Source of the DNA: Chlamydiales bacterium
GTDB taxonomy: Bacteria > Chlamydiota > Chlamydiia > Chlamydiales > JAAKFR01
Length of the DNA stretch: 64,000 nucleotides
Direction of reading: 5' to 3'
NCBI GenBank assembly: GCA_020831465.1
Contig: JAFIGI010000030.1
Span: 11,891 to 75,890 of the forward strand
Below, in pieces: positions 34,630-57,204 of this stretch. Numbering within the stretch: the stretch's first letter is position 1; each line of letters begins with the position of its first letter. The position numbers were made by a program, and so were the translations under genes. The notes beneath the pieces were generated by a model. That model ran no database searches. It was not told the origin of the DNA and worked only from the letters and a program-made list of their open reading frames with translations.

Positions 34630-35100
34630 GTGAAAAAATATTATGTTCTGATCCTTTTCATCGCTCTTGTCCTACTCATTCAGTGGGCGGGGTCGCTCTT
34701 TACCTTTAGCTCGGTTCAAGATTGGTATCCGGAGCTTCGTAAACCTCAATGGACTCCGCCCGCCTGGGTTTTCGGACCCGTATGGACCATTTTGTACCTC
34801 ACAATTGCAGTCTCGGGCTGGCTTGTCTACATGAAAGCTCCCTCTGAAACAGAAAGGAGAGGAGGCCTCATTATCTACGGGATCCAACTCTTTTTCAATT
34901 TTTTCTGGTCCTTTTTTTTCTTTTACTTACGAAGTCCCGGCCTAGGATTGCTCAATATTCTCGTATTGGTTGTATTGATTTTAGCTAACATTGTGGTCTT
35001 TTGTAAGATATATAAACCTGCTGCTCTTCTTTTGATTCCCTATTTCTTATGGGTCTTTTACGCCGCAACATTAAATATGGCGATTTGGAGCTTGAATTGA
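34630..35100 (+). CDS. tspO: TspO/MBR tryptophan-rich sensory protein
   Basis: 156 aa, 5 TM, GTG start. Motifs WYPELRKPQWTPPAWVFGPVWTILY and FFWSFFFF. Confidence 0.88.
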   Translation: MKKYYVLILFIALVLLIQWAGSLFTFSSVQDWYPELRKPQWTPPAWVFGPVWTILYLTIAVSGWLVYMKAPSETERRGGLIIYGIQLFFNFFWSFFFFYLRSPGLGLLNILVLVVLILANIVVFCKIYKPAALLLIPYFLWVFYAATLNMAIWSLN

Positions 35101-35102
35101 TA

Positions 35103-36548
35103 ATGAGTCGAATTATTGTGACAGGCGCCACAGGATTTATCGGAAAAAGGCTGGTCGGGGAATTACTCGACAAGGGCCATACAGTTTATGCTCTTTGCCG
35201 TATCCGCGGGACGAAGCTCGGTTCGCTAACCCACCCCAATCTACATATCCTTTACGGAGATCTTGAAGAGCCCGAAAAAATGGAACCTCTTCCGAAAGAG
35301 ATCGATGCCGCCTACTATCTGATTCATTCAATGGCGAAGAAATTGAAAGATTTAAAGGAAAAAGAGGTAGAAGTTGCCCAAAACTTCGTCCATCTTGTTG
35401 ATCAAACAGAGTGCAAACAAATCCTCTATTTAGGAGGAATCATCGAACCCGGCTCCCAACTCTCTCCTCATTTGCTTTCACGCAAAGCTGTGGAGGAGGT
35501 CCTCAATAAAGCCAAAGCTCCCCTGACCGTTTTGCGCGCGAGCATCATTATTGGCTCCGGAGGAGCCTCATTCGAGATCATTCGAGATCTTGTGGAAAAA
35601 ATTCCTTTGATGGTTGCTCCCCGCTGGGTAAAAACCCTTTGCCAACCGATCGCAATTCGCGACGTGCTTTTTTATCTAGAAGAGAGCCTTTTAAATCCGG
35701 CAATGTTCGAACAAACGCTTGACATAGGTGGCCCGGAAGCGATCTCCTTTAGAGATATTCTATTGCGTTACGCGGCATTTCGAAAGCTTAAACGCTATAT
35801 TATTGACGTTCCGGTATTGACTCCCAAACTCTCAAGTTACTGGCTTGTATTCACGACTTCCGTACGCTTTTCCCTTTGCAGTTACCTAGTTGAGAGCATG
35901 AAAAGCAATAGCGTCTGCCTTAATGCAAAGATACAAGAGCTGCTTCCTCACAAATGCCTCAATTTTGAAGAATCGCTTGAATACGCTTTTTCGAGCATAG
36001 AGAAAAATGAGCTGAAGTCAACCTGGATGGATGCTTGGCTTGTTGAAGGGAAGAGCCCCGACATTGCGAAATTTACGGAAATTCCTGCGGAAGGCTGCTT
36101 TAAGGAGGTTATGAAAGAATCTATTCGCGACTCGCGTGAAGCAGCGATAAACCGTGTTTGGAGTTTGGGAGGGGATCATGGCTGGTATAGTTTAGATTGG
36201 GCTTGGAAGATTCGAGGGTTTATCGACAAATTGACCGGCGGCCCCGGTATGAACCGAGGGAGGCGCCATCCCACGGAGCTCGATGTTGAGGATCCTGTCG
36301 ATTTCTGGCGCGTCATTAAAGCAGATAAAGTTAAGGGGGACTTAATACTTTACGCCGAGATGAATTTGCCCGGAGAGGCGTGGCTCAAGTTTGAAGTCGA
36401 TGGCGAGAACGTCTACCAAATCGTGGTCTTTCGTCCGAAAGGACTCTTTGGCAGGCTTTATTGGTATGCTATGCTCCCTTTTCATGCGATTATTTTTCGA
36501 AATATGGTTAAGGGTTTGGCCGGGGCTTTCACGCAGGTAAAAATGTAA
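35103..36548 (+). CDS. NAD(P)-binding SDR/epimerase-family protein with a C-terminal DUF2867-like domain
   Basis: Trimmed to ATG 35103, 2 nt after the tspO stop. Rossmann motif IIVTGATGFIGKRLV. The C-terminal GGDHGWYSLDWAWKIRGFIDKLTGGPGMNRGRR...DFWRV resembles DUF2867 as I recall it. Confidence 0.75.
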   Translation: MSRIIVTGATGFIGKRLVGELLDKGHTVYALCRIRGTKLGSLTHPNLHILYGDLEEPEKMEPLPKEIDAAYYLIHSMAKKLKDLKEKEVEVAQNFVHLVDQTECKQILYLGGIIEPGSQLSPHLLSRKAVEEVLNKAKAPLTVLRASIIIGSGGASFEIIRDLVEKIPLMVAPRWVKTLCQPIAIRDVLFYLEESLLNPAMFEQTLDIGGPEAISFRDILLRYAAFRKLKRYIIDVPVLTPKLSSYWLVFTTSVRFSLCSYLVESMKSNSVCLNAKIQELLPHKCLNFEESLEYAFSSIEKNELKSTWMDAWLVEGKSPDIAKFTEIPAEGCFKEVMKESIRDSREAAINRVWSLGGDHGWYSLDWAWKIRGFIDKLTGGPGMNRGRRHPTELDVEDPVDFWRVIKADKVKGDLILYAEMNLPGEAWLKFEVDGENVYQIVVFRPKGLFGRLYWYAMLPFHAIIFRNMVKGLAGAFTQVKM

Positions 36549-36573
36549 ATTTTTCAACTGTTTCTGCTATATA
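36540..36573. repeat. Palindromic repeat, loop plus right arm
   Basis: aaaatgtaaatttttcaactgtttctgctatata. The stop codon (and last codons) of the SDR gene lie inside the element loop. Confidence 0.8.
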
Positions 36574-37925
36574 GATTTGTAATTCGCAAGCGCCTTTTTC
36601 GACTCTATAGCATGATCGACAATCGGTAGAGGATACTCCTCCTCTTTTTCTTCTTTGTACCACTCATGGATTCTCTTAGGATCTTTATCAAGGAGCTCCG
36701 GAATCCATTTTTTGATATAGTGGCATTCACTATCAAACTTAATCTGCTGCCTCCAAGGGTTGAATATACGAAAATAGGGTTGTGCATCGCATCCTGTACT
36801 TGCAGCCCACTGCCAATTGCCGTTATTCACAGCAGGATCATAGTCTAGAAGATGTTGGGCGAAATACTTTTCCCCTTTTTTCCAATCAAGATGAAGATCT
36901 TTAACGAAAAAAGAGGCAACTATCATACGGACGCGGTTGTGCATGTATCCGGTTTGATTGAGCTCGCGCATACCGGCATCTACAATCGGGAAACCCGTTC
37001 TCCCCTCGCACCAACTTTTGAAGTGCGAAGAGCTTTTAGACCAATTGAGACGATCATATTTCTCATGAAAAGCTCCTCCAAAGACGTAGGGGAAGTAGAA
37101 AGCAATACTCGAGAAAAAATCCCTCCAATAGAGCGAGCGTGAAAGTGGTGTATTCGGACCAAGGGCCTCTTCTATCTTGTAATAAACTTCTCTTGGCGAA
37201 ACAGTTGTAAATTTAAGGTGGGGGGAAAGATGAGTAGTCGCCTCCATGAAGGGGTAGTCTCTCTCCGGTTCATAACGAGAAAAGCGGTGAAGGTTCTTTA
37301 AAATTCTAAGCGCCTCTTTGCGCCCCCCCTTTTGCGCAACATGGCGGTTCGCTAAAATCTTCTTAAAAGGGGAAGCTTCCTTAGCAAAATCGATCCGGCG
37401 GTTCGAGTAGTTTTTATAGAGATTTTTCCGGGGAGAATCGACAGGGAGTTTTACGGCATTTTTGTAAAAAGGGGTAAAGACCGTATAGGGATTACCATCG
37501 CTTTTCAGCAGATTTTCGGGAGGATGAAGCAAAACGTCGTCAAAGCTTTTGAAAACAACCTCTTTATCTTTGCATACTTTTTGAATTGTTTTATCGCGCT
37601 GAATGCTATAGGGAGTGTAATCTCTGTTCACAACCACCAAGTCAACACCTAGCTTGGTGATGCACTTTTCAACCGCTTTTTGAGGGCTTTCAAAAAAATA
37701 GGAGAGACGCCCTTTCTTTTTTGCGATTTCTTCTTCCAAATCTTCGAGAGATTCGAGCATGAATTGCAAACAAAAATCGCTACGATAGGGGTTGTCGCTG
37801 ATTTGTTCAGGAGTAAAAATGAAGATGCAGAAGACCTCTTCGGCATTTTCCAAGGCATAAATCAACCCTCTATTGTCATGAATCCTTAAATCACGGCGGA
37901 AAATAAAAAGGCCTTTTCCAAACAT
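36567..37925 (-). CDS. phr: Deoxyribodipyrimidine photolyase / cryptochrome family
   Basis: 452 aa with FRRDLRIHDN, TSHLSPHLKFT, GYMHNRVRM and NNGNWQWAASTGCDAQPYFRIFNP. Confidence 0.9.
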   Translation of the reverse strand: MFGKGLFIFRRDLRIHDNRGLIYALENAEEVFCIFIFTPEQISDNPYRSDFCLQFMLESLEDLEEEIAKKKGRLSYFFESPQKAVEKCITKLGVDLVVVNRDYTPYSIQRDKTIQKVCKDKEVVFKSFDDVLLHPPENLLKSDGNPYTVFTPFYKNAVKLPVDSPRKNLYKNYSNRRIDFAKEASPFKKILANRHVAQKGGRKEALRILKNLHRFSRYEPERDYPFMEATTHLSPHLKFTTVSPREVYYKIEEALGPNTPLSRSLYWRDFFSSIAFYFPYVFGGAFHEKYDRLNWSKSSSHFKSWCEGRTGFPIVDAGMRELNQTGYMHNRVRMIVASFFVKDLHLDWKKGEKYFAQHLLDYDPAVNNGNWQWAASTGCDAQPYFRIFNPWRQQIKFDSECHYIKKWIPELLDKDPKRIHEWYKEEKEEEYPLPIVDHAIESKKALANYKSI

Positions 37926-37986: not shown

Positions 37987-39381
37987 CTAGCTTTTGAAGC
38001 CCTCTTTTTTCATCGTTTTCCATTTTCCTGATTTCCGGAATAGGTAAAGAAATCCTCTTAGCCGCCAATAGACAGAGAGCTGCCTGTATCCAAATGTTTC
38101 AAAAAAACTGTAGGAAATCATTTTCAGAATATGGGAAAAAGTATGGTACTTCCTAAAAAAGATAACTTCCATTAGACAACAGCTGACGTTTAAGAGGTAG
38201 GTAAGCCCTAGTGTAAGAACAATAAATGTGAGAATGAATGGTAAAGTGCTGATCTTCAAAAACCAAGATAAAAGAATAATGACATATCCGATCACTTCGA
38301 TCGCGGGAGAGAGCATCTCTCCGAAAAGAAAATAGGGATAAGACAGAAGTCCGGCAAGCCCGTACTTGGGGTTAAAGCAGATCGATTTGTTGAACCATAA
38401 GGCTTGTATAACCCCTTTGTGCCACCTGCTTCGTTGCCGACCTAGAATCGTGAGATTTTCCGGAACCTCGGTCCAACAAACCGGCTCGGCAATGAAGCCA
38501 GTTGAAGCTTCTTTTTTTTCCCGGATGAGCTCTCTTTTGAGGCGCACGACAATCTCCATATCCTCCCCTTCAATTTTCGTGCGGTACCCATTTATCTTTT
38601 TCAACGCCTCCGTTTTAAATAAGCTGAATGCTCCTGAAATAATTAGGGAGCCTTTTAAAGGCTCCCATCCCATGCGTCCTAAGTAAAAAGCCCTTAAATA
38701 CTCTACAGCTTGGACTCTTCCCAAAAAGCTTTTAGGAAAATCGACCTTTCTGATCCCTTCAGGCCTGATTGTGCATCCATTTGCGACCCGGACGCTCGCT
38801 CCAAAAGCCTGCTTGTCGGGTTGCACGGCCATGAAACGGAGCATGCGGCTCAACTCAAAGTTATCCACCAGTGTATCGGCATCTATCACTAGAAGAAGCT
38901 CGGTTGTACAGGCGTTGATGCCGGCATTAATCGCGTCGGATTTCCCGCCATTCTCCTTGTCTATTACGATCAGATTCGGGTGGGATATACTTTGATAATA
39001 GCCGACTACTCTTTCGGTTTTGATTTCTGGGATGTAGATATTGTGTACCGTTTTTAATTGAAACTGCGTTTTCAATAAGCTGAGGGTTTCATCCGTTGAA
39101 CCATCGTTAACCACGATGATAGTTTTGTTGCTGTATTGAAGGTTTAGAATGGAGTTGATTGAAAAGGTAAGCCCTTGAGCTTCGTTATACGCCGGAACAA
39201 GGATTGTCAAATTCGGAAGACCTTCCGACTGCAAAAATACATCCATTCGTCCCAACTCAATTTTGCGTGAGCGGAAGAAAATAAAGACGATGCCGCAAAG
39301 AAGAAGAAGGAGATAAAGGGCGTTTAACCCCCAAAAATAAAAAAGAACAATGTCTTGCAAATAGATAATGAAATGAGTCAT
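37987..39381 (-). CDS. Processive family-2 glycosyltransferase (PgaC/IcaA/NfrB/cellulose-synthase-like polysaccharide synthase)
   Basis: 464 aa. N-terminal TM(s), then LTILVPAYNE, VVNDGSTDET, GGKSDAINAG, VIDADT, ISGAFSLF, GEDME and QRSRWHKG (the Q-x-x-R-W motif). The C-terminus has 3-4 TM. Confidence 0.85.
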   Translation of the reverse strand: MTHFIIYLQDIVLFYFWGLNALYLLLLLCGIVFIFFRSRKIELGRMDVFLQSEGLPNLTILVPAYNEAQGLTFSINSILNLQYSNKTIIVVNDGSTDETLSLLKTQFQLKTVHNIYIPEIKTERVVGYYQSISHPNLIVIDKENGGKSDAINAGINACTTELLLVIDADTLVDNFELSRMLRFMAVQPDKQAFGASVRVANGCTIRPEGIRKVDFPKSFLGRVQAVEYLRAFYLGRMGWEPLKGSLIISGAFSLFKTEALKKINGYRTKIEGEDMEIVVRLKRELIREKKEASTGFIAEPVCWTEVPENLTILGRQRSRWHKGVIQALWFNKSICFNPKYGLAGLLSYPYFLFGEMLSPAIEVIGYVIILLSWFLKISTLPFILTFIVLTLGLTYLLNVSCCLMEVIFFRKYHTFSHILKMISYSFFETFGYRQLSVYWRLRGFLYLFRKSGKWKTMKKEGFKS

Positions 39382-40406
39382 GGCAAAGTCAACGCGTAGC
39401 GAGCCGCATGATACGCATCTGGCTCAAAATCCCAATCCTGAAATTCAAGAAATTGCCGTCCCTTTTTTCCGAAACTCTTGAGAGCTAAAGCGGCTTCAAT
39501 CCGCACAAGCCCTTCAGGATCATTTAATAAAGAAGCGAGCTTTTCAAAACTTTTCTCTGACCGTATCCTCTTCAAAGCGCGTATCGCTTCGATCCGTACT
39601 TTAGGAGCAGGGTCGTCTAAAAATGTGATTAGATCGTGAATCGATTGGTCGGAAGTTAGGTTACCTAGCGTTTTGACGACAAAAATCCGGATTTGTGTGT
39701 TATCGGAGCGATAATCTTTTGAAAGATGGGGGTAGAAGTTTAGAAAATAGACACGGCTTAGAATGTCCAGACATGCGAGACGCATCTCTTCTACCTCTGA
39801 TTTTTGATAAATTCCTACGACGTGCTTAAGAGAAGCGGAGGACATCTTTAAAATGGCATGCCGATAGGGGAACCGTGCGGGCTCTACCTCTTTTACCATT
39901 GAAGAGAGTAGAATTTCAATATGTTGATAAGTCGGGGCTTTCGAAAGGACTGAGACGGCAAGCATGCGAATAAAAAAATCGGAATCTTGAAGCAGCTGAT
40001 AGATCGAGTTAAAGTCGGAATCTTCAAATGACAAGAGAAAGATACGCGCGGCCCTGCTTTTTCTCATCCAAAAGGCGCTTTTGTATTGTTTTCTTGCTAG
40101 GGGGAGCAACTCTTTGTCACAAAAATAGTTTTTGATCGCCTTCCAATCTTCCCCTTCAAACCGTTGTTCAAAAGTCTCTAAAATCCGGAGCAAACGATTC
40201 GGCGGAATTCCCGATTTTATCGAATTAAGAAGATGTCTCTTTTTTAGAATCTCCTTGATCAAATGTTCGAGCCTCTGCTCGCGTCGAGTTAATGATCGAT
40301 TAATGGCAAGATTAAGGATGTTGAATAAAAAAATAAAGGCGATACATGCGAACGTTGCTGCATACTCAATGATAAGAATCCAAAATAATATGAAAGTAAA
40401 TCTCAT
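39378..40406 (-). CDS. Membrane-anchored HEAT-repeat protein
   Basis: 342 aa with an N-terminal TM and HEAT-like repeats (DDPAPKVRIEAIRALKRI, NDPEGLVRIEAALALKSFG). ATGA overlaps on both sides. Confidence 0.7.
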   Translation of the reverse strand: MRFTFILFWILIIEYAATFACIAFIFLFNILNLAINRSLTRREQRLEHLIKEILKKRHLLNSIKSGIPPNRLLRILETFEQRFEGEDWKAIKNYFCDKELLPLARKQYKSAFWMRKSRAARIFLLSFEDSDFNSIYQLLQDSDFFIRMLAVSVLSKAPTYQHIEILLSSMVKEVEPARFPYRHAILKMSSASLKHVVGIYQKSEVEEMRLACLDILSRVYFLNFYPHLSKDYRSDNTQIRIFVVKTLGNLTSDQSIHDLITFLDDPAPKVRIEAIRALKRIRSEKSFEKLASLLNDPEGLVRIEAALALKSFGKKGRQFLEFQDWDFEPDAYHAARYALTLP

Positions 40407-42814
40407 CTGTTCAGAAATATAGATACTTTTTCTAACAGCACTTCGATGCTGAAGGGTTTAACTAAATAATCCAATGCCCCTGCTCTAAGGGCATCTAAAA
40501 TTTCCTGTTCATTTGAAACCGATGAGAGAAAGATCGCTTTAAGCCGGGGAAATTTATCATAAATCTTTCTCAATAGATCCAAGCCGTCCCCATCGGGAAG
40601 ACGGCGATCTAAGATGACCAATGTATCCTTTTCAACTTGGGGCAATCCCGCAAAAAAAAGGAGGGAATCTCTTAAGTTATGAAATTTTGTAACATGATAA
40701 CCATATTTTTCGAACGCAAACTCGAGGATCTCGCATAGATCGAGGTCGTCATCCACAAGGATAATCTGTTTTCCATAGTCAGGTTTTGTTGAGAACTCTC
40801 CAAAACGGGAGATTTTGCAGGTGTTAATCCCCTGTCGAATCGCCTCCAATAACCCTTTTCCACATACTTTTGCAATCTCTTCCAGTTTCGCATCTTTTGC
40901 GGAGAAAAGAACGGCGGAAGCAACAGCGCTAAGCTGAAGATCGGTTCTTGAAGGGAGCATCATTTTCGATTGGATTTTTTCAAAGAATGAAGAGAGTAAA
41001 AATTCAATCTCGCTCCCTGACAAACGTTTAAAAAGCAAACAGAAATAGCCTGGCGAAAGAGTTCCCATGCATACACTCGTCGAGAAATGCGTTTTCATAT
41101 TCTCCGAAAAGAGAATCTGGACTTGCTTTGCTTCTAGGGGGGTCAATACTTTCTCAAGCTCTTCCCAGATGGAGATTTTTAAATAGATAAGGCTCCACCG
41201 AAGATCATTTGAAGAGTAAGCCACATAGGTTTCGATCTGATCGAATAAGAGTTTTTTTGTCATAAGTCCGGTGACCGGATCGATTTCGCTTTTTGGAATG
41301 CTGGAACGTTTTCTCTCGAAGAGATTGAGAAGACGCGAGAGAAAAATATGAGGAATAAGAGGTTTATGTACAACGGCATCGCACCCTTCCGTATATGCGG
41401 ATTCGTCTGCTTCCTCTATCGGCAAGGCGGTGCATATGACGATCAACAAATCTCGGTATCGACTATCTTTGCGCAAGGCTCTCAGTAGAATTTTTCCGTT
41501 AAATGATTTGAGCATAATATCGAGGATCAACATATCGGGGTTAAATTCATCTAGCGCCCTAAGTAATTCTCTTTCGTCGGATATATAGAGTGGATTGAAG
41601 TTGGCTGAGCGCAAAACTTCTGAGACCAAAGAGCCGAAATCGGGATCGTCGTCAACAACAAGGATTTTAGCAGGAAAACTTATCCGGTTTTGAAGGGAAT
41701 GATTGATCATCTCTTCGACATCCCTATTCGTAACCGGCTTAACAATGATAAAATCGACTCCCGATTCCATCAACTCGATCCGTTTTGCCAGGTCTTCTTT
41801 ATCGCTTATAATACAGAATAAAGGGGGAGATTCCTTTATTATATCTTTCATCTTTTTAATTAGGTCGATCCCCGTCAATTTTGTATAGGGGAAGTACTCA
41901 TCCGAAATGACAAGCTTGAGATCGGCCTCATTCAGAGCATCAGATTCAAACAAAACCTGAGGGTTGTCATCTATCCGGATTGTAACGGAACGTTTAGCGG
42001 CCAGTGATTGGAGAAAAAAGGCTAAGTTAAAATCGGACGTGACCGCTCGAATCAGAGTCTTGGCGTTAACTGAGCCCTCTTTGATCCTATCGGATCTTTC
42101 GATCGAAGGGATAATTTCCTGTGGTATAGACCTTATCCTGAGTAGGATGTGTTGAAAGAGAAGCTTTAATTTTCTAAAAAAGCTCCGGTTTTCTCTCACA
42201 ATATTCTCAAGCGCTTGATAGGATTTTCCTGAGTAAATATTGTAAAGGTACATTTCATGCGCGGCGCACAATTTTCCTGCTTCCGGGTATCCATAGGTAG
42301 CCGCGGTTCCTGTTATCTTGTGTATCTCGTTTCGAATTTCCAATAAATTGGCGTTTAACGTCTCTGCTTTTTGCGTTTGGTGCATCAGCGATTCGATTCT
42401 CTCGAGCTTATCAAAAATGGCCTCATCGTACTTCTTGATCAGCTGGTGCGGGATAAATTCAGAAACCTCGATGCGAGGCATTTCTCGCAAGATCGTTCTT
42501 AATAGAGCAGCGACTTCATCTTCGATAATGGGTAATTCAAGAACGTAATCGACTCCATAGTTACATTTAAGTTGGCGAAAACGACTCTGCTTTTTTGTCG
42601 CTTCCTCAAAATAGATAATCTTCACCCCCTTGCCTGTAAAACGCTTTACAAAATCGAGAGTTTGATTCTCCTCTTCGACTAAAAATAGAGCTTTTGCAGA
42701 AGTCCAATCGTTTTCAAAACTGTAGGAGAAGTTGAATATTTCATGAAACTGCTCGAATATAGGCTTTAGAAGCTGCTGCCGATCGTAGGCGACGATATGT
42801 ACCGAATCCGTCAT
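40403..42814 (-). CDS. Multidomain signalling protein: REC-like, HPt, REC-like, REC, degenerate GGDEF, REC
   Basis: 803 aa. HPt-like IRNEIHKITGTAATYGYPEAG. Canonical REC at aa ~385-500 (KILVVDDDPDF...MLILDIML...VHKP). GGDEF-like block DPVTGLMTKK...GTLSPGYFCLLF, with SPGYF in place of GGDEF and no RxxD. C-terminal REC IILVDDDLD...LVILDRRLPDGDG...LVKPF. Confidence 0.75.
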   Translation of the reverse strand: MTDSVHIVAYDRQQLLKPIFEQFHEIFNFSYSFENDWTSAKALFLVEEENQTLDFVKRFTGKGVKIIYFEEATKKQSRFRQLKCNYGVDYVLELPIIEDEVAALLRTILREMPRIEVSEFIPHQLIKKYDEAIFDKLERIESLMHQTQKAETLNANLLEIRNEIHKITGTAATYGYPEAGKLCAAHEMYLYNIYSGKSYQALENIVRENRSFFRKLKLLFQHILLRIRSIPQEIIPSIERSDRIKEGSVNAKTLIRAVTSDFNLAFFLQSLAAKRSVTIRIDDNPQVLFESDALNEADLKLVISDEYFPYTKLTGIDLIKKMKDIIKESPPLFCIISDKEDLAKRIELMESGVDFIIVKPVTNRDVEEMINHSLQNRISFPAKILVVDDDPDFGSLVSEVLRSANFNPLYISDERELLRALDEFNPDMLILDIMLKSFNGKILLRALRKDSRYRDLLIVICTALPIEEADESAYTEGCDAVVHKPLIPHIFLSRLLNLFERKRSSIPKSEIDPVTGLMTKKLLFDQIETYVAYSSNDLRWSLIYLKISIWEELEKVLTPLEAKQVQILFSENMKTHFSTSVCMGTLSPGYFCLLFKRLSGSEIEFLLSSFFEKIQSKMMLPSRTDLQLSAVASAVLFSAKDAKLEEIAKVCGKGLLEAIRQGINTCKISRFGEFSTKPDYGKQIILVDDDLDLCEILEFAFEKYGYHVTKFHNLRDSLLFFAGLPQVEKDTLVILDRRLPDGDGLDLLRKIYDKFPRLKAIFLSSVSNEQEILDALRAGALDYLVKPFSIEVLLEKVSIFLNR

Positions 42815-42861
42815 GTGATTTTGAGTTCAATTTATCTAGTGATTTATTTACATATAATATT

Positions 42862-45042
42862 ATGAAAATAAAATCAGTAGTCTGCCTTGCGGTTATCGTA
42901 TTTTTACAGAGTTCAGGCCACGCAGACCCTCTCGTTTTTCTTGAGCATACAGAGCCATACTGGGAGCATCTTCTTAAGCAGGAACCGGATAATCCCTACT
43001 ACTTATATCGCCTGGGAAAAATGTATGCGCAAAAGGAGGATTACCAAGAAGCGGAACCTCTTTTAAGCCGTTCTCTAGAGCTCAATCCTGAGGATGCCGA
43101 CGTCAAACTGAGTCTTGCCTATCTATACTTATGGACAGATAGGGTTGATAAAGCGCGAACGCTCTTTCAGGAAATTCTTGAGGCTTTTCCGGAATATGAA
43201 GAGGCGCAAACCGGATTGAAAAGAGCACAAGAAGGGGAAGTGAAAGCTTGGGCAGAAGTTTGGAAAAAAACGGTCTTCGAGCAGGAAGCGACTCTACTTC
43301 TTGAGCTCCTTATAAAAATTGAGCCTAAAAACGCGCACTACCTTTTTAAGTTAGGTAGAAAGTTCGCACAAGAGGGAAAATACAAAAGAGGTGAAGAGCT
43401 TTTAAAACGCTCTCTAGAGCTCAATCCCAAAGATGCCGACGTTAAACTGGCGCTTGCATATTTATATTTATGGGACGAGCGGCCGAAAGAGGCGGAAGAA
43501 CTTTTTACCGAAATTCTCAGAGAGTTTCCCGATTATAAAGAGGCCGAAGAGGGGCTGAAGAGGGCTAGAGAAAGCCTTGCCGAGAAAAAGAAAGACCCTA
43601 CCCTTCTTCCCTGGCAGAAAGAGTGGATCAAAATCGCAGAGAAACTTGAGGGCTGCTATCAATACGACAAGGCAATGGCGATTTGGCACTATCTCTTTTG
43701 CACTTCGTCGCAAGATAACCGCCATCTCTTCGCCGCGCGAATCGGTCAGCTGCTTTCTTGGAAGGGAAGATGGAGAGAGGCTCTTTGCTATTTAAACCTC
43801 TCTCTTAGTCTCGATCCGGAGTATCACTTGGCCAAACTCCGTTTAGCCTATGTTTACTTGTTCACGGGCCGCCTGGATTGCTCCCGCTATCTTTTTTGCT
43901 CCCTTGTTCGCAAGGACTCCAAAGATTCCGATGCATGGGAAGGGTATGCAAGAGCTTCGGCAGCTCTTTTGTGCAATTGCGAAGCGAAAGAGGCCTTTTG
44001 CTGCAGGCTTGGGTTAGCAAAGCCTACGTATGATCTCTATAAACAATTCCACTTTCTTTTAAAATGGACCAATCCTTGGCTGGAGATTGGCGGCCTATAT
44101 GCTCAGGAGAGAGAGACCGACCTAATTACAAAAGTCCGCTCGGCTCAAAGAAATACTGCCTTTGGCGAGGTTAAAATTCACTACCCTCTTACTTCGACAA
44201 GCCGCCTGCATGCGTTTGCGCATTATGGTTTTGACAAGGAGATCAACTTAATCCAGGGAATCGATAATTTTGCACTCAATATTTGGAAATTTGGTTTCGG
44301 ATATGACTCTCAATTGAGCCCGCGGCTAACTTTTCGCTCTTGGGCTGTCGTAAAAGAGGGAGAGGATCCCCTCGACAACGCGATTTTTCCCCTTGGCAGG
44401 CGGAGAAGATTTGAGCCCGGGGCGGTTGTACTCTATAACTGGAGAAATCTGAACGCTTCATTTTCCGCAGCACGCGATTCGTTTATCGTAAAAAATTTCC
44501 AGAATTTTAACAGCACCCTTTTGGTGAGAGATACCTGTCTTGGAGAGGCTTCATATGGTCTTGGCAATAACCAAGGTTATTTTGGCCTATCGGGATTTAC
44601 GCGTTTCTATCATGAGTTCAAACCGAATAGGCAATGGGAGGGAAGTGGATGGCTCGGGTGGGGCTTTCCAAAATATAAGCCCTGCCTTTATATCCAATAC
44701 AGAGGCAGGATTGGAGGTTTCAGATTTACCGATACAAATTACTACTCCTATTCGACCCAGTGGGAGCATTTCGGGCAATTCTATTACCGGCGGCAGGGGA
44801 TATTGTATTGTGATTATGAATTTGGCTATATGCGTTCGTGGCAATGGAGTCGTGATTTGAACCAGCCGATCGACACGGTTATTTTTGTCCCCAGCCTCTT
44901 TAGGATCACAAACAGGGGATACGCTGAATTAAGCCGTTTATTCAGCCCCCGTTTTTGGGTGAAAGCAAGAGGGGAATACTACCATGATACGACCGAATAT
45001 ACTGCATGGATTGTGAGAGGTGAGGTGAACATTGTATTTTAA
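42862..45042 (+). CDS. TPR-repeat plus C-terminal beta-barrel outer-membrane protein (PgaA/NfrA/BcsC-like polysaccharide export porin)
   Basis: 726 aa with signal peptide MKIKSVVCLAVIVFLQSSGHA. About 380 aa of TPR-like helices include an internal duplication. The C-terminal ~330 aa are rich in alternating aromatic strands and end in ..RGEVNIVF. Confidence 0.65.
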   Translation: MKIKSVVCLAVIVFLQSSGHADPLVFLEHTEPYWEHLLKQEPDNPYYLYRLGKMYAQKEDYQEAEPLLSRSLELNPEDADVKLSLAYLYLWTDRVDKARTLFQEILEAFPEYEEAQTGLKRAQEGEVKAWAEVWKKTVFEQEATLLLELLIKIEPKNAHYLFKLGRKFAQEGKYKRGEELLKRSLELNPKDADVKLALAYLYLWDERPKEAEELFTEILREFPDYKEAEEGLKRARESLAEKKKDPTLLPWQKEWIKIAEKLEGCYQYDKAMAIWHYLFCTSSQDNRHLFAARIGQLLSWKGRWREALCYLNLSLSLDPEYHLAKLRLAYVYLFTGRLDCSRYLFCSLVRKDSKDSDAWEGYARASAALLCNCEAKEAFCCRLGLAKPTYDLYKQFHFLLKWTNPWLEIGGLYAQERETDLITKVRSAQRNTAFGEVKIHYPLTSTSRLHAFAHYGFDKEINLIQGIDNFALNIWKFGFGYDSQLSPRLTFRSWAVVKEGEDPLDNAIFPLGRRRRFEPGAVVLYNWRNLNASFSAARDSFIVKNFQNFNSTLLVRDTCLGEASYGLGNNQGYFGLSGFTRFYHEFKPNRQWEGSGWLGWGFPKYKPCLYIQYRGRIGGFRFTDTNYYSYSTQWEHFGQFYYRRQGILYCDYEFGYMRSWQWSRDLNQPIDTVIFVPSLFRITNRGYAELSRLFSPRFWVKARGEYYHDTTEYTAWIVRGEVNIVF

Positions 45043-47164
45043 AGCTTTTCCTGGAGCTGAGACTTTCTATTTCAGCAAAGTCCAGAAGTCTTTCTCCCTG
45101 ATGATCGGCATTCTGATTTGCCTCCTCGCGACAGCCAGGCTCTACAAGCTATTTACATTGGATAGAGAGCAAGTGTTGTTATGGCCGATTATTTTGCTAA
45201 CGACATTATCGCTACTTTCATTAGGTCTTGTTTTTATCCTACTTTCACTTGGGCGGAAGAGAGAAGCAATCGGCACCTCACTCATTGCAATCCTATTCGC
45301 TGCAGTAGAAATCTTTCTTGATACTTTTCTCTTCCCTGAGACCGATTTGATCTCCGTTGGAATTAAATTTTGGGGCATTTTCTCTTCGAGCTTAGCTTTG
45401 CTTAGCCTTGCAACAGCAGTGCTGCTCATCTCGTTGCTTCCGCTGAAGCAACTCTTTCTTTGGATTACAATTATTTTGGCAGGGCTCAATTTCGGTTATG
45501 CCCTTTTCATTATGGTATCCTACGTAAGCGGATTGGGTCACTTACTTTTCCGCGTAGACACCTCTCTGCTCGTGGCATTTGCTGTGACACTTGTCACCAT
45601 TGGAGTTTTAACAGAAGCACTCTCTTTTTTCGCTGCCTTTTATCCTAGGGTGTTTGGGGGAAGTATCGCCACGATTTGGGGAACTGCGGCTCTCCTATTA
45701 ACCATTAGCACATGGTCGGCTTTTCAAATTCGCGAAAGACAGCTGATTTCAGAAATCAGCGAAGAGAGAGCAACGACGCTTCAAGAGAGCATTGAAATAA
45801 GAGGAAGCGCAGCTATTTTTGCTCTGAGCCGGATGAAAGAACGCTGGATACATCTTAAAGATGATCATGAAGAAGACCTTCACCAGATAGACGCTCTCTT
45901 ATACCTTGAATACTTTCCTTGGGTAGAAGAAATAGGCTTTGTTAAGGATGGGGTAGTGATCGATACAATTTTGTCAAAACTTCCATCCGGCCTGCTTCAA
46001 ACTCTTATTCAAGAAATTCCCTACAGTGCCGAGGAATTCGAGATACCGAGAATTATTTTCAAAAAAGCGGATGACCGTGTTTATATGATTGTTTACTATG
46101 GGTATGACGAGAAGGAGAGCTCCCATCTTTTTTCCGTCAGCGATGCTCTCCAATATTTCACCTATCTGGTCCCTAATTTTCTTCGCAAGGAAAACGGAAT
46201 TCTCATTTACTCGCAAAACGATCTTCTCTTCCAAGTCAATCAAGAAGAGATAGCATACAAAGACCGCTTTTCTTCCTCTCTATCTTTTATGTTTCATCAG
46301 GCACGGATATCGATCGAGATATGGCCTATACCTGCCTATATAGAAAAGATAACTTCTCCTGCCTCAACCTATCACCTTATCATCGGCATCATCCTTTCTT
46401 TGACCATTTTTTTCGCGCTCTATTTTGCTTATCTCGCCACGAAAAAAAAGAAGGAGGCCTACGAAGCAAATAAAGAGAAATCGATGTTTTTAGCAAATAT
46501 GAGTCATGAGATACGCACTCCCTTGAACGGCATCATCGGCAGTTGCTCGATTTTAGAAATTACACAACTTCAGGAAGATCAAAAAAAATGGGTCGCGGGG
46601 ATAAAAAAATCCGGAAAGGCGCTTTTAGAATTGATTGATGATATCCTGGATATTTCGAAAATTGAAACCGCAGGTATGAAAATCTCCTATGCTGAAATCG
46701 ATTTAAAGCAATTATTGGAGGAAACGATGGGCTTTCTGACTCAAAAAGCTAAAGCGAAAAACCTCGAATTGTTTTTCGAATACGATCCTGATCTTGCGCC
46801 GATCCAGATTGTAGATGGAAAAAGAGTGAGGCAAATCGTCGTGAATCTTGTAGACAACGGTATTAAATATACGCGCGAAGGGTATGTGAAACTATCTCTC
46901 TTTGAATCAAATGGATTTATCGTATTCCGTGTAGAGGATTCGGGGAGAGGAATTGCCGAACATGATATGGATAAGCTTTTTAAAAAATATATTCGTTTAG
47001 ATATTCGGGCTGAAGAGGGAAGTGGATTGGGGCTGGCGCTTGTTAAAAAGCTACTCGAAAAGATGAACGGAAGCATCGAGGTTAAAAGTGCGACTGGACG
47101 AGGGTCGGTCTTTACGGCTAGATTGCCGATTATCAAGAAAGAAGAAATCAGAAATCAGGAGTGA
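45032..47164 (+). CDS. Sensor histidine kinase with a multi-TM N-terminal sensor region
   Basis: 710 aa with a TTG start; an alternative ATG lies at 45101. About 6-8 TM precede an H-box MSHEIRTPLNGI, N-box VDNGIKYT, G1 DSGRGI and G2 GSGLGLALV. Confidence 0.88.
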   Translation: MYFKAFPGAETFYFSKVQKSFSLMIGILICLLATARLYKLFTLDREQVLLWPIILLTTLSLLSLGLVFILLSLGRKREAIGTSLIAILFAAVEIFLDTFLFPETDLISVGIKFWGIFSSSLALLSLATAVLLISLLPLKQLFLWITIILAGLNFGYALFIMVSYVSGLGHLLFRVDTSLLVAFAVTLVTIGVLTEALSFFAAFYPRVFGGSIATIWGTAALLLTISTWSAFQIRERQLISEISEERATTLQESIEIRGSAAIFALSRMKERWIHLKDDHEEDLHQIDALLYLEYFPWVEEIGFVKDGVVIDTILSKLPSGLLQTLIQEIPYSAEEFEIPRIIFKKADDRVYMIVYYGYDEKESSHLFSVSDALQYFTYLVPNFLRKENGILIYSQNDLLFQVNQEEIAYKDRFSSSLSFMFHQARISIEIWPIPAYIEKITSPASTYHLIIGIILSLTIFFALYFAYLATKKKKEAYEANKEKSMFLANMSHEIRTPLNGIIGSCSILEITQLQEDQKKWVAGIKKSGKALLELIDDILDISKIETAGMKISYAEIDLKQLLEETMGFLTQKAKAKNLELFFEYDPDLAPIQIVDGKRVRQIVVNLVDNGIKYTREGYVKLSLFESNGFIVFRVEDSGRGIAEHDMDKLFKKYIRLDIRAEEGSGLGLALVKKLLEKMNGSIEVKSATGRGSVFTARLPIIKKEEIRNQE

Positions 47165-47168
47165 GAAT

Positions 47169-47564
47169 ATGGAAATCAACCCCCCGGCATTTCCGGACAA
47201 AAAGATTTTAATCGCAGAGGACGATCCTTTAAGCATGGAAATTTTGAAACATATGCTGGGGCTCTGTGCGATCACTCCGGATGCGGCTTCCGATGGAGAG
47301 GCTGCCTTGAGATTTGCCCTCGAAAAGAGATATGACATGATCATTTTAGATATTCATATGCCCAATAAAACGGGATTTGAAGTCGTTCAAGAAATTCGGA
47401 ACAAAATCAAAGACCACCCAATAGTCGTTGCCCTGACGGCAAGCGTCATTCCTGCGGAATTACAACAGATTAAAGTTGCGGGATTTGACAGCTACGTCCG
47501 CAAACCCATTGAGATCGAGGATATTTTTCAGCTGTTGGAAAAATACTTTGCCGCTAAAACGTAA
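47169..47564 (+). CDS. Single-domain (CheY-like) response regulator
   Basis: Trimmed to ATG 47169, 4 nt after the HK stop. Motifs KILIAEDD, MIILDIHMP, LTAS and VRKP. Confidence 0.88.
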   Translation: MEINPPAFPDKKILIAEDDPLSMEILKHMLGLCAITPDAASDGEAALRFALEKRYDMIILDIHMPNKTGFEVVQEIRNKIKDHPIVVALTASVIPAELQQIKVAGFDSYVRKPIEIEDIFQLLEKYFAAKT

Positions 47565-47598
47565 GTGCCGGCAGCAGCTCCCACAACAAGAGCGGACT

Positions 47599-47648
47599 TA
47601 TAGTAGAATCAGTTGAAAATGTAAATTTTTCAACTGATTCTGCTATAT
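47599..47648. repeat. Palindromic intergenic repeat, full copy
   Basis: ttatagtagaatcagttgaaaa-tgtaaa-tttttcaactgattctgctatat, with arms complementary except for one G-T pair. It lies between the convergent RR gene and the P-type ATPase. Confidence 0.92.
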
Positions 47649-47653
47649 CATTG

Positions 47654-50347
47654 TTAGCTCTTTTTCACTTTTCCTTTGCTGAAAAGAGATGGGGATATCC
47701 TCTTTCTAAGATCCTCGATTATGAGGATGACTATCGGGGGAATGAGAAGGATCCCCCAATGACGGAAGGTCAAATGCTCTATCTGAAAAGGAATATTTAC
47801 ATAAGGAATGTAGAGGAGCGCTATTTGTGCGGCAAGTGCAATGCAAATAGAATAGATTAAATATCTATTTTTGAAGAGCCCTAGTTTAAAAAGGGGGATT
47901 TCATCGGAACGCATTTGGAGCGCGACCAGCATTTTAAAAATCACAACGGCTGAAAATACCATCGTTCTTGCCAATTCCAAGTTGTAATTGTTGAGCCCCC
48001 AGAGAAATAAAAAGTATATGCTGAAGCCAAGCATAAGAGATAAGTAAAGAATCCTATGTACCATTCCCCTATATAAAAGCCCTACTCTAGGATCTCGTGG
48101 AGGCATTTTCAATTCGTTGCCGATTTTCGGCTCTAATCCTAAGGGAACCGCTAAGATAACTCCTGTCACTAAATTGATCCAAAGAATTTGAAGGGGTAAA
48201 AGCGGAGGGAGGCCGAGGAGTGCAACACAGGAGATCAGGCCTAAAAGTTCTCCAAAGCATGTTGTAAGAAGAAAAGCGGCGACGTTTCTCAACCGGTTAA
48301 AAATGGCCCTTCCCTCTTCTACGGCAGCGACGATGGAGGCAAAATTATCATCGGCCAGAACCATGTCTGAAGATTCTTTCGCCACTTCGGTGCCCATTAT
48401 TCCCATTGCGATGCCGATATCCGCCGCCTCCAGAGCCGGCGCGTCGTTCACTCCATCTCCTGTCATGGCAACGATGTGGCGGAGTTTTTGAAAAGCTTGG
48501 ACAATACGTAATTTATGCTTCGGTTCGATGCGGGCAAAGACTCCAACGGTTTTTATCTTTTTTTCGAGCTCGTCGTCGCTCATTTTGGCCAACTCTTCTC
48601 CGGTTACGGCCTCTTTCGATTCGATTCCCAACTGATCGGCAATTGCTGCTGCTGTCAACTTATTGTCTCCCGTCGCCATCACAACGCGCATTCCCGCTTG
48701 CTTGCACAGTTCTATCGAACGTACTGCCTCTTTTCGTGGGGGGTCGTACATAGCGAAAACCCCCACATAGATCAATTTCTCCTTAAAGTCCTCTTCTTTC
48801 AAATGATCCGTTCCGGAAATCGGCGTATAGGCGACGGCAATCAGGCGGAAGGTCTTTTTGGCCAACGCCTCAAAATCGGCTTTGATTTTCTCCCGCATCG
48901 ACGCATCCAGTTCGACCACTTCGCTTCCCTTTAGATAGGAAGAACTGAAATGGAGCAGCTTCTCCGGCGATCCTTTTACCAGAACAGTTTTTTCATTTTC
49001 AAATAGATGGAGCGTCGCCATGTAGAGGTTTTCGCTTTGAAAAGGAATTTCTCCGATCCTCGGGTGTTCGGTATTGATATGCTCTATGTTGATTTTTGCC
49101 TTGGCTGCTGCGACGAGGAGAGCACCCTCTGTGGGATCGCCTATCACCTCGCAACGCTCTTCGGATTCCTTTGAGATAAGAGCGTCATTGCACAAGCTTC
49201 CAATCACCAGCATTTTTTTAACCGCAAAATCTTCGTTAGGGTCAAAGATTTTTTCTTCTTCGCTAAATTCTCCGGAAATGGAGTTTCCTTCGCCTGAAAG
49301 ATGCGCCCTTTTTTGCGCCGTGTAGAGCTCTCTCACAGTCATTAGATTTTCGGTCAATGTCCCGGTCTTATCGGAGCAAATGATGGTGGTCGATCCCAAC
49401 GTTTCGACTGCCATCATCCTTCGAATCACGGCGTATCTTTTTGCCATAATCGTCATGCCTGTCGCGAGCACAACTGTTACGGCAACAGGAAGTCCCTCCG
49501 GGATGGCTGCCACTGCGGCAGAGACGCTGAGCATGAAAATTTCGATTAAGTCCAAATCGTGATAGAAGCTTATACCGATAAAAATAAGAATGGCGAAAAA
49601 GACGATCAGAAGCATCCAGTTTCCCAGAGTATGGATGCTCTTTTGAAGAGGAGTTTTAACCGGCTTGGTTTCGCCTATCGCTTGTGCGATCTTTCCGATT
49701 TGAGTCTTCATCCCCGTTTCGACGACAAGCGCCGTTCCTTTACCGTAAGCAACGCTTGTTCCGCGAAAAACCATGTTCCTTCTATCGGCTATCGTAAGCG
49801 TTTCATCCATCCTATTCGTGTGCTTTTGAATGGGAAATGATTCTCCTGTTAAGGAAGATTCATTGATCTTAAGATTAGAAACTTCGATTAACCTTGAGTC
49901 TGCGGAAATAAAATCTCCCGATTCAAAGATGATAATGTCGCCCGGAACGACAAGCTCCGATGAAATGACCGCTATTTTCCCATCTCTCCTAACTCTCGAC
50001 TTGGGAGAGGTCATTTTTTTCAGTGCTTCCATCGCCTGAGCCGCTCTCGATTCTTGAAAAAAACCGATCAGGGTCATGATCACGATCGTTCCTGCTAAAA
50101 CGCTGCCGTCCAGTATGTTTCCTACCAAGAATTTGACAAGGGAAGAGAAAACCAGGATATAAACAAGAGGATTGATAAACTGACGGGCAAAAATTTTAAG
50201 GAACGAGGCCTTACCTTTCTCTACGATTTGATTGAGTCCGAATCTTTCCAGCCTTGCTTTTGCTTCCGCTTCAGAGATTCCACCCCGGTTGGATTTCAAT
50301 TCTTCCAAAGCTTCGTCGATAGAATCCGCGTGCCATTTTTTTTCCAT
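47654..50347 (-). CDS. Cation-transporting P-type ATPase (type II, Ca2+/Mg2+-like)
   Basis: 897 aa with LTGES, ICSDKTGTLT and MTGDGVNDAPAL, and a 10-TM layout. Confidence 0.9.
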   Translation of the reverse strand: MEKKWHADSIDEALEELKSNRGGISEAEAKARLERFGLNQIVEKGKASFLKIFARQFINPLVYILVFSSLVKFLVGNILDGSVLAGTIVIMTLIGFFQESRAAQAMEALKKMTSPKSRVRRDGKIAVISSELVVPGDIIIFESGDFISADSRLIEVSNLKINESSLTGESFPIQKHTNRMDETLTIADRRNMVFRGTSVAYGKGTALVVETGMKTQIGKIAQAIGETKPVKTPLQKSIHTLGNWMLLIVFFAILIFIGISFYHDLDLIEIFMLSVSAAVAAIPEGLPVAVTVVLATGMTIMAKRYAVIRRMMAVETLGSTTIICSDKTGTLTENLMTVRELYTAQKRAHLSGEGNSISGEFSEEEKIFDPNEDFAVKKMLVIGSLCNDALISKESEERCEVIGDPTEGALLVAAAKAKINIEHINTEHPRIGEIPFQSENLYMATLHLFENEKTVLVKGSPEKLLHFSSSYLKGSEVVELDASMREKIKADFEALAKKTFRLIAVAYTPISGTDHLKEEDFKEKLIYVGVFAMYDPPRKEAVRSIELCKQAGMRVVMATGDNKLTAAAIADQLGIESKEAVTGEELAKMSDDELEKKIKTVGVFARIEPKHKLRIVQAFQKLRHIVAMTGDGVNDAPALEAADIGIAMGIMGTEVAKESSDMVLADDNFASIVAAVEEGRAIFNRLRNVAAFLLTTCFGELLGLISCVALLGLPPLLPLQILWINLVTGVILAVPLGLEPKIGNELKMPPRDPRVGLLYRGMVHRILYLSLMLGFSIYFLFLWGLNNYNLELARTMVFSAVVIFKMLVALQMRSDEIPLFKLGLFKNRYLIYSICIALAAQIALLYIPYVNIPFQIEHLTFRHWGILLIPPIVILIIEDLRKRISPSLFSKGKVKKS

Positions 50348-57201: not shown

Positions 57202-57204
57202 CGT

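Follow-up and report, generated by a model that had tools for sequence, protein, structure and literature searches.

We describe a six-gene cluster at positions 37,987 to 47,564 of a 64,000-nucleotide (nt) stretch of Chlamydiales DNA (contig JAFIGI010000030.1, assembly GCA_020831465.1), the whole of which we refer to as the window. On balance, we favor the view that the cluster encodes a system for synthase-dependent polysaccharide secretion in which a phosphorelay, by way of a HEAT-repeat adaptor, controls the system post-translationally. Three of its genes, encoding a protein with receiver (REC) domains, a HEAT-repeat protein with a transmembrane (TM) anchor, and a glycosyltransferase family 2 (GT2) synthase, recur together in about a dozen phyla. 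More tentatively, this triad may represent an undescribed cross-phylum class in which a processive synthase is switched post-translationally by a phosphorylated receiver, with a HEAT protein as the dedicated adaptor. What is new here is the regulatory module and a porin family; synthase-dependent secretion itself is known.

The six open reading frames (ORFs) are arranged as two divergent operons. On the minus strand lie the genes for an 803-amino-acid (aa) multi-domain response regulator (40403..42814), the 342-aa HEAT protein (39378..40406), and the 464-aa GT2 synthase (37987..39381). On the plus strand lie those for a 726-aa protein with tetratricopeptide repeats (TPR) and a predicted beta-barrel (42862..45042), a 710-aa sensor histidine kinase (45032..47164), and a stand-alone REC protein of about 131 aa (47169..47564). 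An earlier note, made from the sequence alone, had described two divergent operons with six genes and a 47-nt gap, coding for a processive GT2, a membrane-anchored HEAT-repeat protein, a regulator laid out as REC/Hpt/REC/REC/pseudo-GGDEF/REC, a TPR protein with a C-terminal barrel, a multi-TM histidine kinase, and a stand-alone REC. The ORF coordinates bear out this arrangement, and each of the protein assignments is upheld by the analyses given below. The 47 nt between the divergent start codons (42815..42861) are AT-rich, and a scan of this region for the sigma-70 consensus returned no more sites than shuffled sequence does. On the minus strand, the stop codon of the regulator gene and the start codon of the HEAT gene share 4 nt at 40403-40406, and those of the HEAT and GT2 genes share 4 nt at 39378-39381. 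A 4-nt gene overlap is the usual sign of translational coupling, and the overlaps suggest that the regulator, the HEAT protein, and the GT2 are co-translated. A hairpin with a 20-bp stem (47600..47646), which separates the REC gene from a convergent P-type ATPase gene, is likely a bidirectional terminator bounding the cluster.

The HEAT protein is central to the reading we favor. It matches the Pfam family HEAT_2 with 67 bits and begins with a hydrophobic segment (aa 1-39) that holds a single TM helix, followed by a basic stretch. The same N-terminal helix and basic stretch are found in all 80 HEAT proteins examined, and because of this pattern the positive-inside rule predicts that the repeats are cytoplasmic. 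The public gene call for the protein (P0121, 294 aa) begins 48 codons downstream, dropping the TM helix. Since the orthologs are 345-346 aa long and the helix is kept in 80 of 80, we consider the longer ORF to be the real one.

The association of this protein with the synthase extends far beyond the window. The GT2 has thousands of homologs at 37-45% identity in Gemmatimonadota, Marinimicrobia, Nitrospinota, Bacteroidota/Rhodothermota, Acidobacteria, Aminicenantes, Elusimicrobia, Margulisbacteria, Proteobacteria, Firmicutes, and Actinobacteria, with a few from metagenome-assembled genomes (MAGs) labeled archaeal; the homologs obtained number 7,994 in all. We translated and profile-searched all ORFs of 89 loci (designated by L numbers), 79 of which have 1.2 kb or more of sequence ahead of the GT2 gene. 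A HEAT-family ORF stands immediately upstream of the GT2 on the same strand in 77 of these 79 loci, from about a dozen phyla; in the two exceptions (L013 and L038) the HEAT gene is nearby. Matches to the HEAT profile elsewhere than immediately upstream of the GT2 number 4 of 90. All of these counts, and those in the next paragraph, were made on stop-to-stop ORFs in MAG contigs and include duplicates (L002/L003, L087/L088, and the window/L086). The complete REC-HEAT-GT2 unit is found in Gemmatimonadota, Marinimicrobia, Nitrospinota, Bacteroidota, Firmicutes, Actinobacteria, Elusimicrobia, Margulisbacteria, Proteobacteria, and Chlamydiota. The earlier note had presented the cluster as a chlamydial system and had proposed mining gene neighborhoods in other phyla. 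The cluster is real, and it is the restriction to chlamydiae that does not stand, since the core of the system spans phyla.

The regulators that precede the HEAT gene vary in content around a constant part. Among 61 of them, REC is present in every one, Hpt in 21, GGDEF in 14, and a DNA-binding (HTH) domain in only a handful, so their output is unlikely to be transcriptional. The REC domain common to all 61 aligns with the C-terminal REC of the 803-aa protein in the window. A recurrent extended variant occurs in Marinimicrobia (L029, L037, L040, L079, and L081), with all genes on one strand in the order REC, hybrid histidine kinase (870-1190 aa), response regulator of about 510-630 aa, small REC, HEAT, GT2, and a TPR protein of 426-485 aa. 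With a hybrid kinase and more REC genes joined to the core in these loci, extended relays are a recurrent feature around it.

This distribution bears on the best of the alternatives, which we nevertheless think unlikely: that the signaling genes merely share a location or regulation with the synthase, the relay controlling something else, or transcription through an unlinked regulator, while the HEAT protein is a structural or localization partner blind to phosphorylation. HEAT repeats are generic scaffolds, 14 of the 77 loci with flanking sequence have no REC ORF directly upstream of the HEAT gene, and one Criblamydia-like chlamydial locus (L089) has no kinase gene adjoining the cluster, all of which fits such an arrangement. 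Mere co-location is harder to reconcile with the other 63 loci, in which the order and strand of REC, HEAT, and GT2 are kept across about a dozen phyla, often with overlapping codons. Three of the loci lacking a directly adjacent REC (L032, L055, and L074) have one a single gene away, and the near absence of DNA-binding domains from the linked regulators speaks against an effect on transcription.

The synthase itself has the features of a processive enzyme. A GT-A domain lies between an N-terminal TM segment and C-terminal TM helices (aa ~340-445), with the hydrophobic segments at aa 10-41 and 351-409 flanking the catalytic domain. Pfam matches include Glycos_transf_2 (87 bits), Glyco_tranf_2_3 (84 bits), and Glyco_trans_2_3 (52 bits), with a weak match to Chitin_synth_2. 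The catalytic motifs D93, D167-A-D169, G-E273-D274, and Q316-R-S-R-W320 (QRSRW) are kept in 118-120 of 120 homologs, and a search of the PDB aligns the protein with BcsA over aa 50-411. The motif set, the flanking TM helices, and this alignment point to a processive rather than a non-processive enzyme. The sequence contains the D, DxD, xED, and QxxRW motifs and the predicted TM pore that mark the inner-membrane component of synthase-dependent systems.

The nearest characterized synthase is PgaC. The top NCBIfam match of the GT2 is PgaC_IcaA (TIGR03937), at 125 bits far under the cut-off of 422, and a BLASTP comparison with E. coli PgaC gives 24% identity over 310 aa (E = 4e-25). Among other E. 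coli proteins, YaiP is matched with E = 8e-13 and BcsA marginally with E = 0.009; NfrB shows no significant similarity (E = 0.39). By its distant similarity to PgaC, the enzyme possibly uses UDP-N-acetylglucosamine (UDP-GlcNAc) as its sugar donor. At one related locus, a gene of the UDPGP family (PF01704, UDP-sugar pyrophosphorylase family; L095:1457-2716) ends an operon of kinase-like, response regulator, and HEAT genes. Together with the affinity to PgaC, this gene gives a hint of a UDP-hexose or UDP-GlcNAc donor.

The candidate export protein is encoded on the other side of the divergent gap. Following a signal peptide (aa 1-21), the 726-aa protein is predicted to fold into two parts. Residues 23-403 (nt 42928-44070) form a TPR superhelix, and residues 406-725 (nt 44077-45036) form a beta-barrel of 16 strands, with ...VNIVF at its end. 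Pfam recognizes TPRs at aa 30-240 and finds no match in the C-terminal 340 aa that hold the barrel. AlphaFold2 run on the whole protein with a 60-sequence alignment gives a model with a pLDDT of 91.5, showing the TPR superhelix and sixteen long strands; this run replaced one on the barrel domain alone with a two-sequence alignment (pLDDT 28). When the model was compared with the PDB using Foldseek, E. coli BcsC (9b8a) was the only top match spanning both the TPR and the barrel, over 565 columns (TM-score 0.41 by query and 0.52 by target). The modeled structure is thus that of a TPR protein with a C-terminal barrel porin, as expected of the outer-membrane partner in a synthase system.

No comparable match exists at the level of sequence. 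A profile of the barrel searched against all PDB sequences matched no barrel and only a residual TPR repeat, and the barrel has no sequence match to E. coli PgaA, BcsC, NfrA, or YaiO. A word-indexed search for homologs returned one relative only; we used an exhaustive HMMER search instead, which found a family of 111 representatives among 1.84 billion cluster representatives. The domain is C-terminal in all 111 relatives, whose lengths range from 340 to 1780 aa, and TPRs are present in 58 of the 60 best. In a Pfam scan of 60 full-length relatives, the 25 most frequent families (of 76) were only TPR/ARM repeat models. A terminal F following an alternating hydrophobic strand, the assembly signal of outer-membrane proteins, is found in 77 of 79 full-length barrel domains. 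As judged from sequence, the barrel is a separate and rare family outside Pfam, and as a predicted porin it extends the set of export porins.

Members of this barrel family keep close company with the core genes. All eight barrel-family loci examined (the window, L001, L013, L087, L089, L094, L095, and L096) also encode a GT2, a HEAT protein, and a multi-REC regulator. In L001 (GCA_024233495.1), a histidine kinase and a 1253-aa TPR protein face an Hpt protein, an 803-aa response regulator, HEAT, and GT2. In L087, a metagenome contig from ENA with the closest homolog of the window GT2 (68% identity), two kinases, a REC, and a TPR protein face the regulator, HEAT, and GT2. A TPR protein faces the same three genes in L089, and L013 has the same genes as the window cluster in another order. 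As far as sequence comparison can tell, the cluster is not a chance arrangement, because the gene set and divergent layout recur in the chlamydial relatives L001, L087, and L089 and, rearranged, in L013. The three distant members (L094, L095, and L096; 23-27% identity), which were chosen regardless of context, likewise adjoin GT2, HEAT, and multi-REC regulator genes. The TPR protein of L089 falls in one 90% cluster with WP_079978007.1 of the cultured Criblamydia sequanensis CRIB-18; this species therefore has a barrel-family TPR protein, and the contig with the near-identical copy shows the four-gene core.

Some of these loci hold further genes. In L089 (231-3431), a 568-aa protein of the sulfatase superfamily and a GNAT acetyltransferase are encoded beside the TPR/barrel protein. 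In Bcs systems, cellulose is modified by members of the sulfatase/alkaline-phosphatase superfamily (BcsG), and by analogy this pair could be polymer-modifying enzymes. In L096, the HEAT gene is followed by a tandem pair of paralogous GT2 synthase genes (56-2909), and an unannotated 969-aa protein is encoded between a 1631-aa TPR/barrel gene and a gene with the order Hpt-REC-GGDEF-REC.

A different pairing of the synthase with a beta-rich domain is seen in many Gemmatimonadales. There the GT2 is fused in frame to an extension of about 240 aa (P0069 at L002:8001-10145 and about 50 other proteins of ~711 aa), with a signal-peptide-like start (...LLVMCLAASGLSAQ) followed by a beta-rich domain that ends in F or L. 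In two loci (L009:2258-3040 and L010:11065-12153), the extension domain is not fused but has an ORF to itself right after the GT2. The fusion of an inner-membrane GT2 with an apparent precursor of an outer-membrane barrel is odd and suggests internal cleavage by signal peptidase. The JGI name of the extension is "YaiO family outer membrane protein"; P0069 has no Pfam match there, and the extension has no similarity to E. coli YaiO. We also considered whether the chlamydial barrel is homologous to this extension and rejected the idea, as hhalign gives a probability of 0.2%.

An alternative that we regard as improbable is that the GT2 makes an oligosaccharide or membrane glycoconjugate, as NodC-like or glycolipid enzymes do, and not an exported polymer, with the TPR/barrel protein having another role in the envelope. 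NodC and non-processive GT2 families are among the weak NCBIfam matches of the GT2, a periplasmic or modifying partner is missing from the cluster, and four monoderm carriers (L053, L068, L073, and L082) keep REC-HEAT-GT2 without a TPR gene, although many diderm carriers have one nearby. On the other hand, QRxRW followed by C-terminal TM helices is a signature of pore-forming processive synthases, and a TPR/barrel gene stands next to or near the GT2 gene in eight of the eight loci examined. In a rough neighbor-joining tree, in which E. coli PgaC formed a long outgroup branch, the GT2s tied to this type of barrel make up one clade. That Gemmatimonadales fuse or adjoin a different beta-rich domain resembling outer-membrane proteins to the same GT2 also argues for export.

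The 803-aa regulator contains the domains expected of a phosphorelay intermediate. Reading from its N-terminus on the minus strand, it consists of a degenerate REC that has lost the acidic pocket and Asp (aa 1-110; nt 42485-42814), an Hpt domain with His165 in an HKxxG motif (aa ~120-235; nt 42110-42457), a REC-like domain (aa ~250-378; nt 41681-42067), a REC with D388-390/D432/K484 (aa 382-500; nt 41315-41671), a degenerate GGDEF domain (aa ~505-680; nt 40775-41302), and a C-terminal REC with D688-690/D736/K786 (aa 683-803; nt 40406-40768). In the window protein, Pfam finds three REC stretches, scores Hpt at 21-22 bits, just under the gathering score of 24.6, and matches the excised GGDEF-like segment only marginally (E = 0.28). 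The layout is borne out by the ortholog from another Chlamydiales MAG (L013), in which four REC stretches, Hpt (29 bits), and GGDEF (37 bits) are recognized above threshold and with which the window protein is collinear in a four-way alignment of the window, L087, L001, and L013. Invariant in these four orthologs are the Hpt motif His165-K-x-x-G169 and the acidic, Asp, and Lys residues of the two REC domains at D388-390/D432/K484 and D688-690/D736/K786. The GG(D/E)EF motif of diguanylate cyclases is degenerate in all four, reading SPGYF in the window, and the RxxD I-site is missing from all four.

The kinase and the stand-alone REC, both on the plus strand, could supply the upstream part of the relay. 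The kinase has about eight N-terminal TM segments, a domain of unknown type of about 210 aa, a TM helix at aa 443-471, and then HisKA (71 bits) and HATPase_c (90 bits) domains by Pfam; its H-box reads SHEIRTPLN, and the N and G boxes are visible in the translation. NCBIfam relates its core to hybrid kinases of the TorS/BarA/ArcB type. The stand-alone protein matches Response_reg with 78 bits, has the DD/D/T/K residues of receivers in its translation, and finds its best NCBIfam matches in the receiver parts of ArcB, TorS, and BarA. Its ORF also opens at GTG 47088, but ATG 47169, which stands 4 nt after the kinase stop codon, is more likely the start. Taken from the translations, kinase boxes, receiver residues, the Hpt His165, and a terminal receiver Asp together make a candidate His-Asp-His-Asp phosphorelay.

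The analyses above show the gene set, its domains, the catalytic and phospho-acceptor residues, the barrel fold, and the cross-phylum linkage, and on this basis we infer how the system might work. The inner-membrane GT2 would polymerize a UDP-sugar and thread the chain through its own TM pore, and the 726-aa protein would take the polymer on its periplasmic TPR arm and pass it through the 16-strand outer-membrane barrel. In the relay, the polytopic kinase would phosphorylate the stand-alone REC, the first Asp of a His-Asp-His-Asp series, and the phosphoryl group might move from there into the 803-aa protein, first to its Hpt domain and then to its receiver domains. The phosphorylated C-terminal receiver may then dock onto the cytoplasmic HEAT solenoid, which a single TM helix would tether beside the synthase as an adaptor between receiver and GT2. 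Docking would switch the synthase on or off post-translationally, a role held elsewhere by cyclic di-GMP (c-di-GMP) receptors. Gene context and domain content indicate that control is probably phosphorylation-based. Export, the order of phosphotransfer, the contacts among REC, HEAT, and GT2, and the identity of the polymer are the conditional steps in this account.

Several points weigh against it. Gene adjacency is also compatible with the HEAT protein being only a scaffold or localization factor, and the neighborhood counts carry the duplicates and the simple ORF calls described above. Most characterized synthase-dependent systems have a periplasmic partner or modifying enzyme, unlike this cluster. 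The identity of the polymer is weakly constrained by sequence, given the low identity to PgaC and a score so far under the family cut-off. Furthermore, the 14 of 61 related regulators with a well-scoring GGDEF domain (best E = 2.7e-46) could have c-di-GMP as an effector in their organisms. That c-di-GMP control has been retained in the chlamydial system, with the GGDEF-like domain, the HEAT protein, or the GT2 binding c-di-GMP made elsewhere and the receivers only tuning the response as in PleD/WspR or PelD/YdaK, is more doubtful still: a GGDEF-fold domain does persist in the chlamydial proteins, as in those 14 regulators, and degenerate GGDEF receptors are known in Pel-type systems, but both GG(D/E)EF and the I-site are lost in the four chlamydial orthologs, 47 of the 61 related modules keep REC-HEAT-GT2 without any GGDEF, and the six proteins have no PilZ or MshEN match in Pfam or NCBIfam.

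Relay-gated secretion through a HEAT adaptor would set the cluster apart from the characterized synthase-dependent systems, since c-di-GMP receptors control the Bcs, Pga, Alg, Pel, and Nfr synthases. The cluster resembles PgaABCD of E. coli in pairing an inner-membrane GT2 of similar size and topology with an outer-membrane protein made of TPRs and a 16-strand barrel. It differs in having neither a PgaB deacetylase nor PgaD and in a barrel without sequence similarity to PgaA, and its scores fall well short of the family cut-offs (PgaC, TIGR03937, 125 versus 422 bits; PgaA, TIGR03939, 36 versus 367 bits). Pga is controlled by c-di-GMP at the PgaC-PgaD interface, for which this cluster has a HEAT protein and a phosphorelay instead. 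With Bcs, the cluster shares a processive GT2 with QxxRW and, in the BcsC fold, its best whole match to a TPR-plus-barrel protein. The resemblance to BcsC is at the level of fold only (20 versus 858 bits), the CelA score is 32 versus 699 bits, PilZ and BcsB are absent, and the xED motif has G/V where Bcs has TED. Like NfrA/NfrB of E. coli, the cluster encodes a minimal pair of inner-membrane GT2 and outer-membrane TPR/barrel protein side by side; NfrB, however, is activated by c-di-GMP via its C-terminal domain (MG1655 annotation), and there is no significant similarity to NfrB or NfrA here.

Comparisons on the regulatory side are fewer. PleD/WspR regulators and PelD similarly join REC to a GGDEF-fold domain and are encoded beside a polysaccharide synthase, whereas the chlamydial proteins have lost the GGDEF motif and I-site and have gained Hpt and up to four REC domains. 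In Myxococcus xanthus, EpsW, a receiver protein without a DNA-binding output, controls the exopolysaccharide (EPS) enzyme EpsZ post-translationally, by protein-protein contact, which shows that direct activation of such an enzyme by a receiver domain is possible (PMC12802240). That case belongs to a Wzx/Wzy pathway, with the regulator acting directly on a phosphoglycosyl transferase; the system described here is synthase-dependent, has a HEAT protein interposed, and is known from its genes alone. Control of synthase-dependent EPS is otherwise known to involve c-di-GMP (PMC12802240).

The absences that the earlier note had pointed out, of PilZ, a deacetylase, and PgaD, are confirmed by profile and similarity searches: none of the six proteins is similar to PgaD, and no deacetylase or PgaD-like ORF lies in or beside the cluster. 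Compared with E. coli NfrB, NfrA, YaiO, PgaD, and BcsB, the cluster proteins show little or no similarity. We rejected yaiO-yaiP of E. coli as an equivalent, because YaiP has similarity in the GT-A domain only (E = 8e-13) and HMM searches against YaiO gave no match. The EmbRS cluster of Rubrivivax is unrelated, being of the Wzy type. For xagABCD of Xanthomonas, a possible named equivalent that we compared by description only, the published accounts give no domain data matching the HEAT protein. Source annotations are generic ("glycosyltransferase family 2 protein", "HEAT repeat domain-containing protein", "tetratricopeptide repeat protein"). Neither the REC-HEAT-GT2 unit nor a polysaccharide synthase system in chlamydiae turned out to be described in the full-text literature searched, a scope outside which most subscription papers lie. 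With NCBIfam scores far under the cut-offs of PgaC, CelA, NodC, PgaA, and BcsC, the expectation that the cluster carries no characterized name stands within that literature.

The remainder of the window places the cluster in a chlamydial genome. A TopA-SWIB fusion (1639-4122; PRK06319, 1430 bits versus a cut-off of 868) and a long GreA fusion of about 720 aa (11214-13379; PRK06330, 927 bits versus 697) both exceed NCBIfam equivalog cut-offs, and these fusions, which are typical of Chlamydiae, confirm the assignment of the window to that group. The nearest homologs of the cluster proteins also come from Chlamydiales MAGs. The GC content of the cluster is 0.41-0.45 (window positions 38000-48000), compared with 0.46-0.53 in most of the window, and its neighbors are similarly low. 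We considered recent horizontal transfer on the basis of composition and drew no conclusion, as the gap is too small and the neighbors equally low. Adjoining the cluster (34630-37925) are genes for a TspO/MBR protein, an SDR/NmrA-DUF2867 protein, and a DNA photolyase, a light- or stress-related set that might not be expected in an obligate intracellular bacterium. Farther along (55873-60939), a cytochrome b gene (ExtP/b6-like) is followed by a 1244-aa ORF weakly matching cytochrome c/cbb3 subunit II; this chlamydia may thus have a respiratory complex to which the two belong.

The main value of these observations lies in the widely conserved REC-HEAT-GT2 core, more than in its chlamydial setting. 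A conserved, translationally coupled unit of this kind suggests a second, phosphorylation-based principle for controlling polysaccharide synthases, one that is directly testable, and if the proposal is correct, two-component signaling would stand beside the c-di-GMP paradigm as an alternative to it. Experiments are feasible, as the cultured Criblamydia sequanensis encodes a barrel-family TPR protein whose near-identical copy sits with the core cluster. The chlamydial clade would add to the core a four-step relay and a family of TPR/16-strand export porins peculiar to it. Organisms without evident c-di-GMP signaling would thereby have a surface polymer that can be switched, for instance in the course of the developmental cycle or while surviving extracellularly. 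If a polymer is exported, it would be relevant to the biology of the chlamydial envelope, to how environmental lineages persist outside their hosts, and to their developmental cycle.

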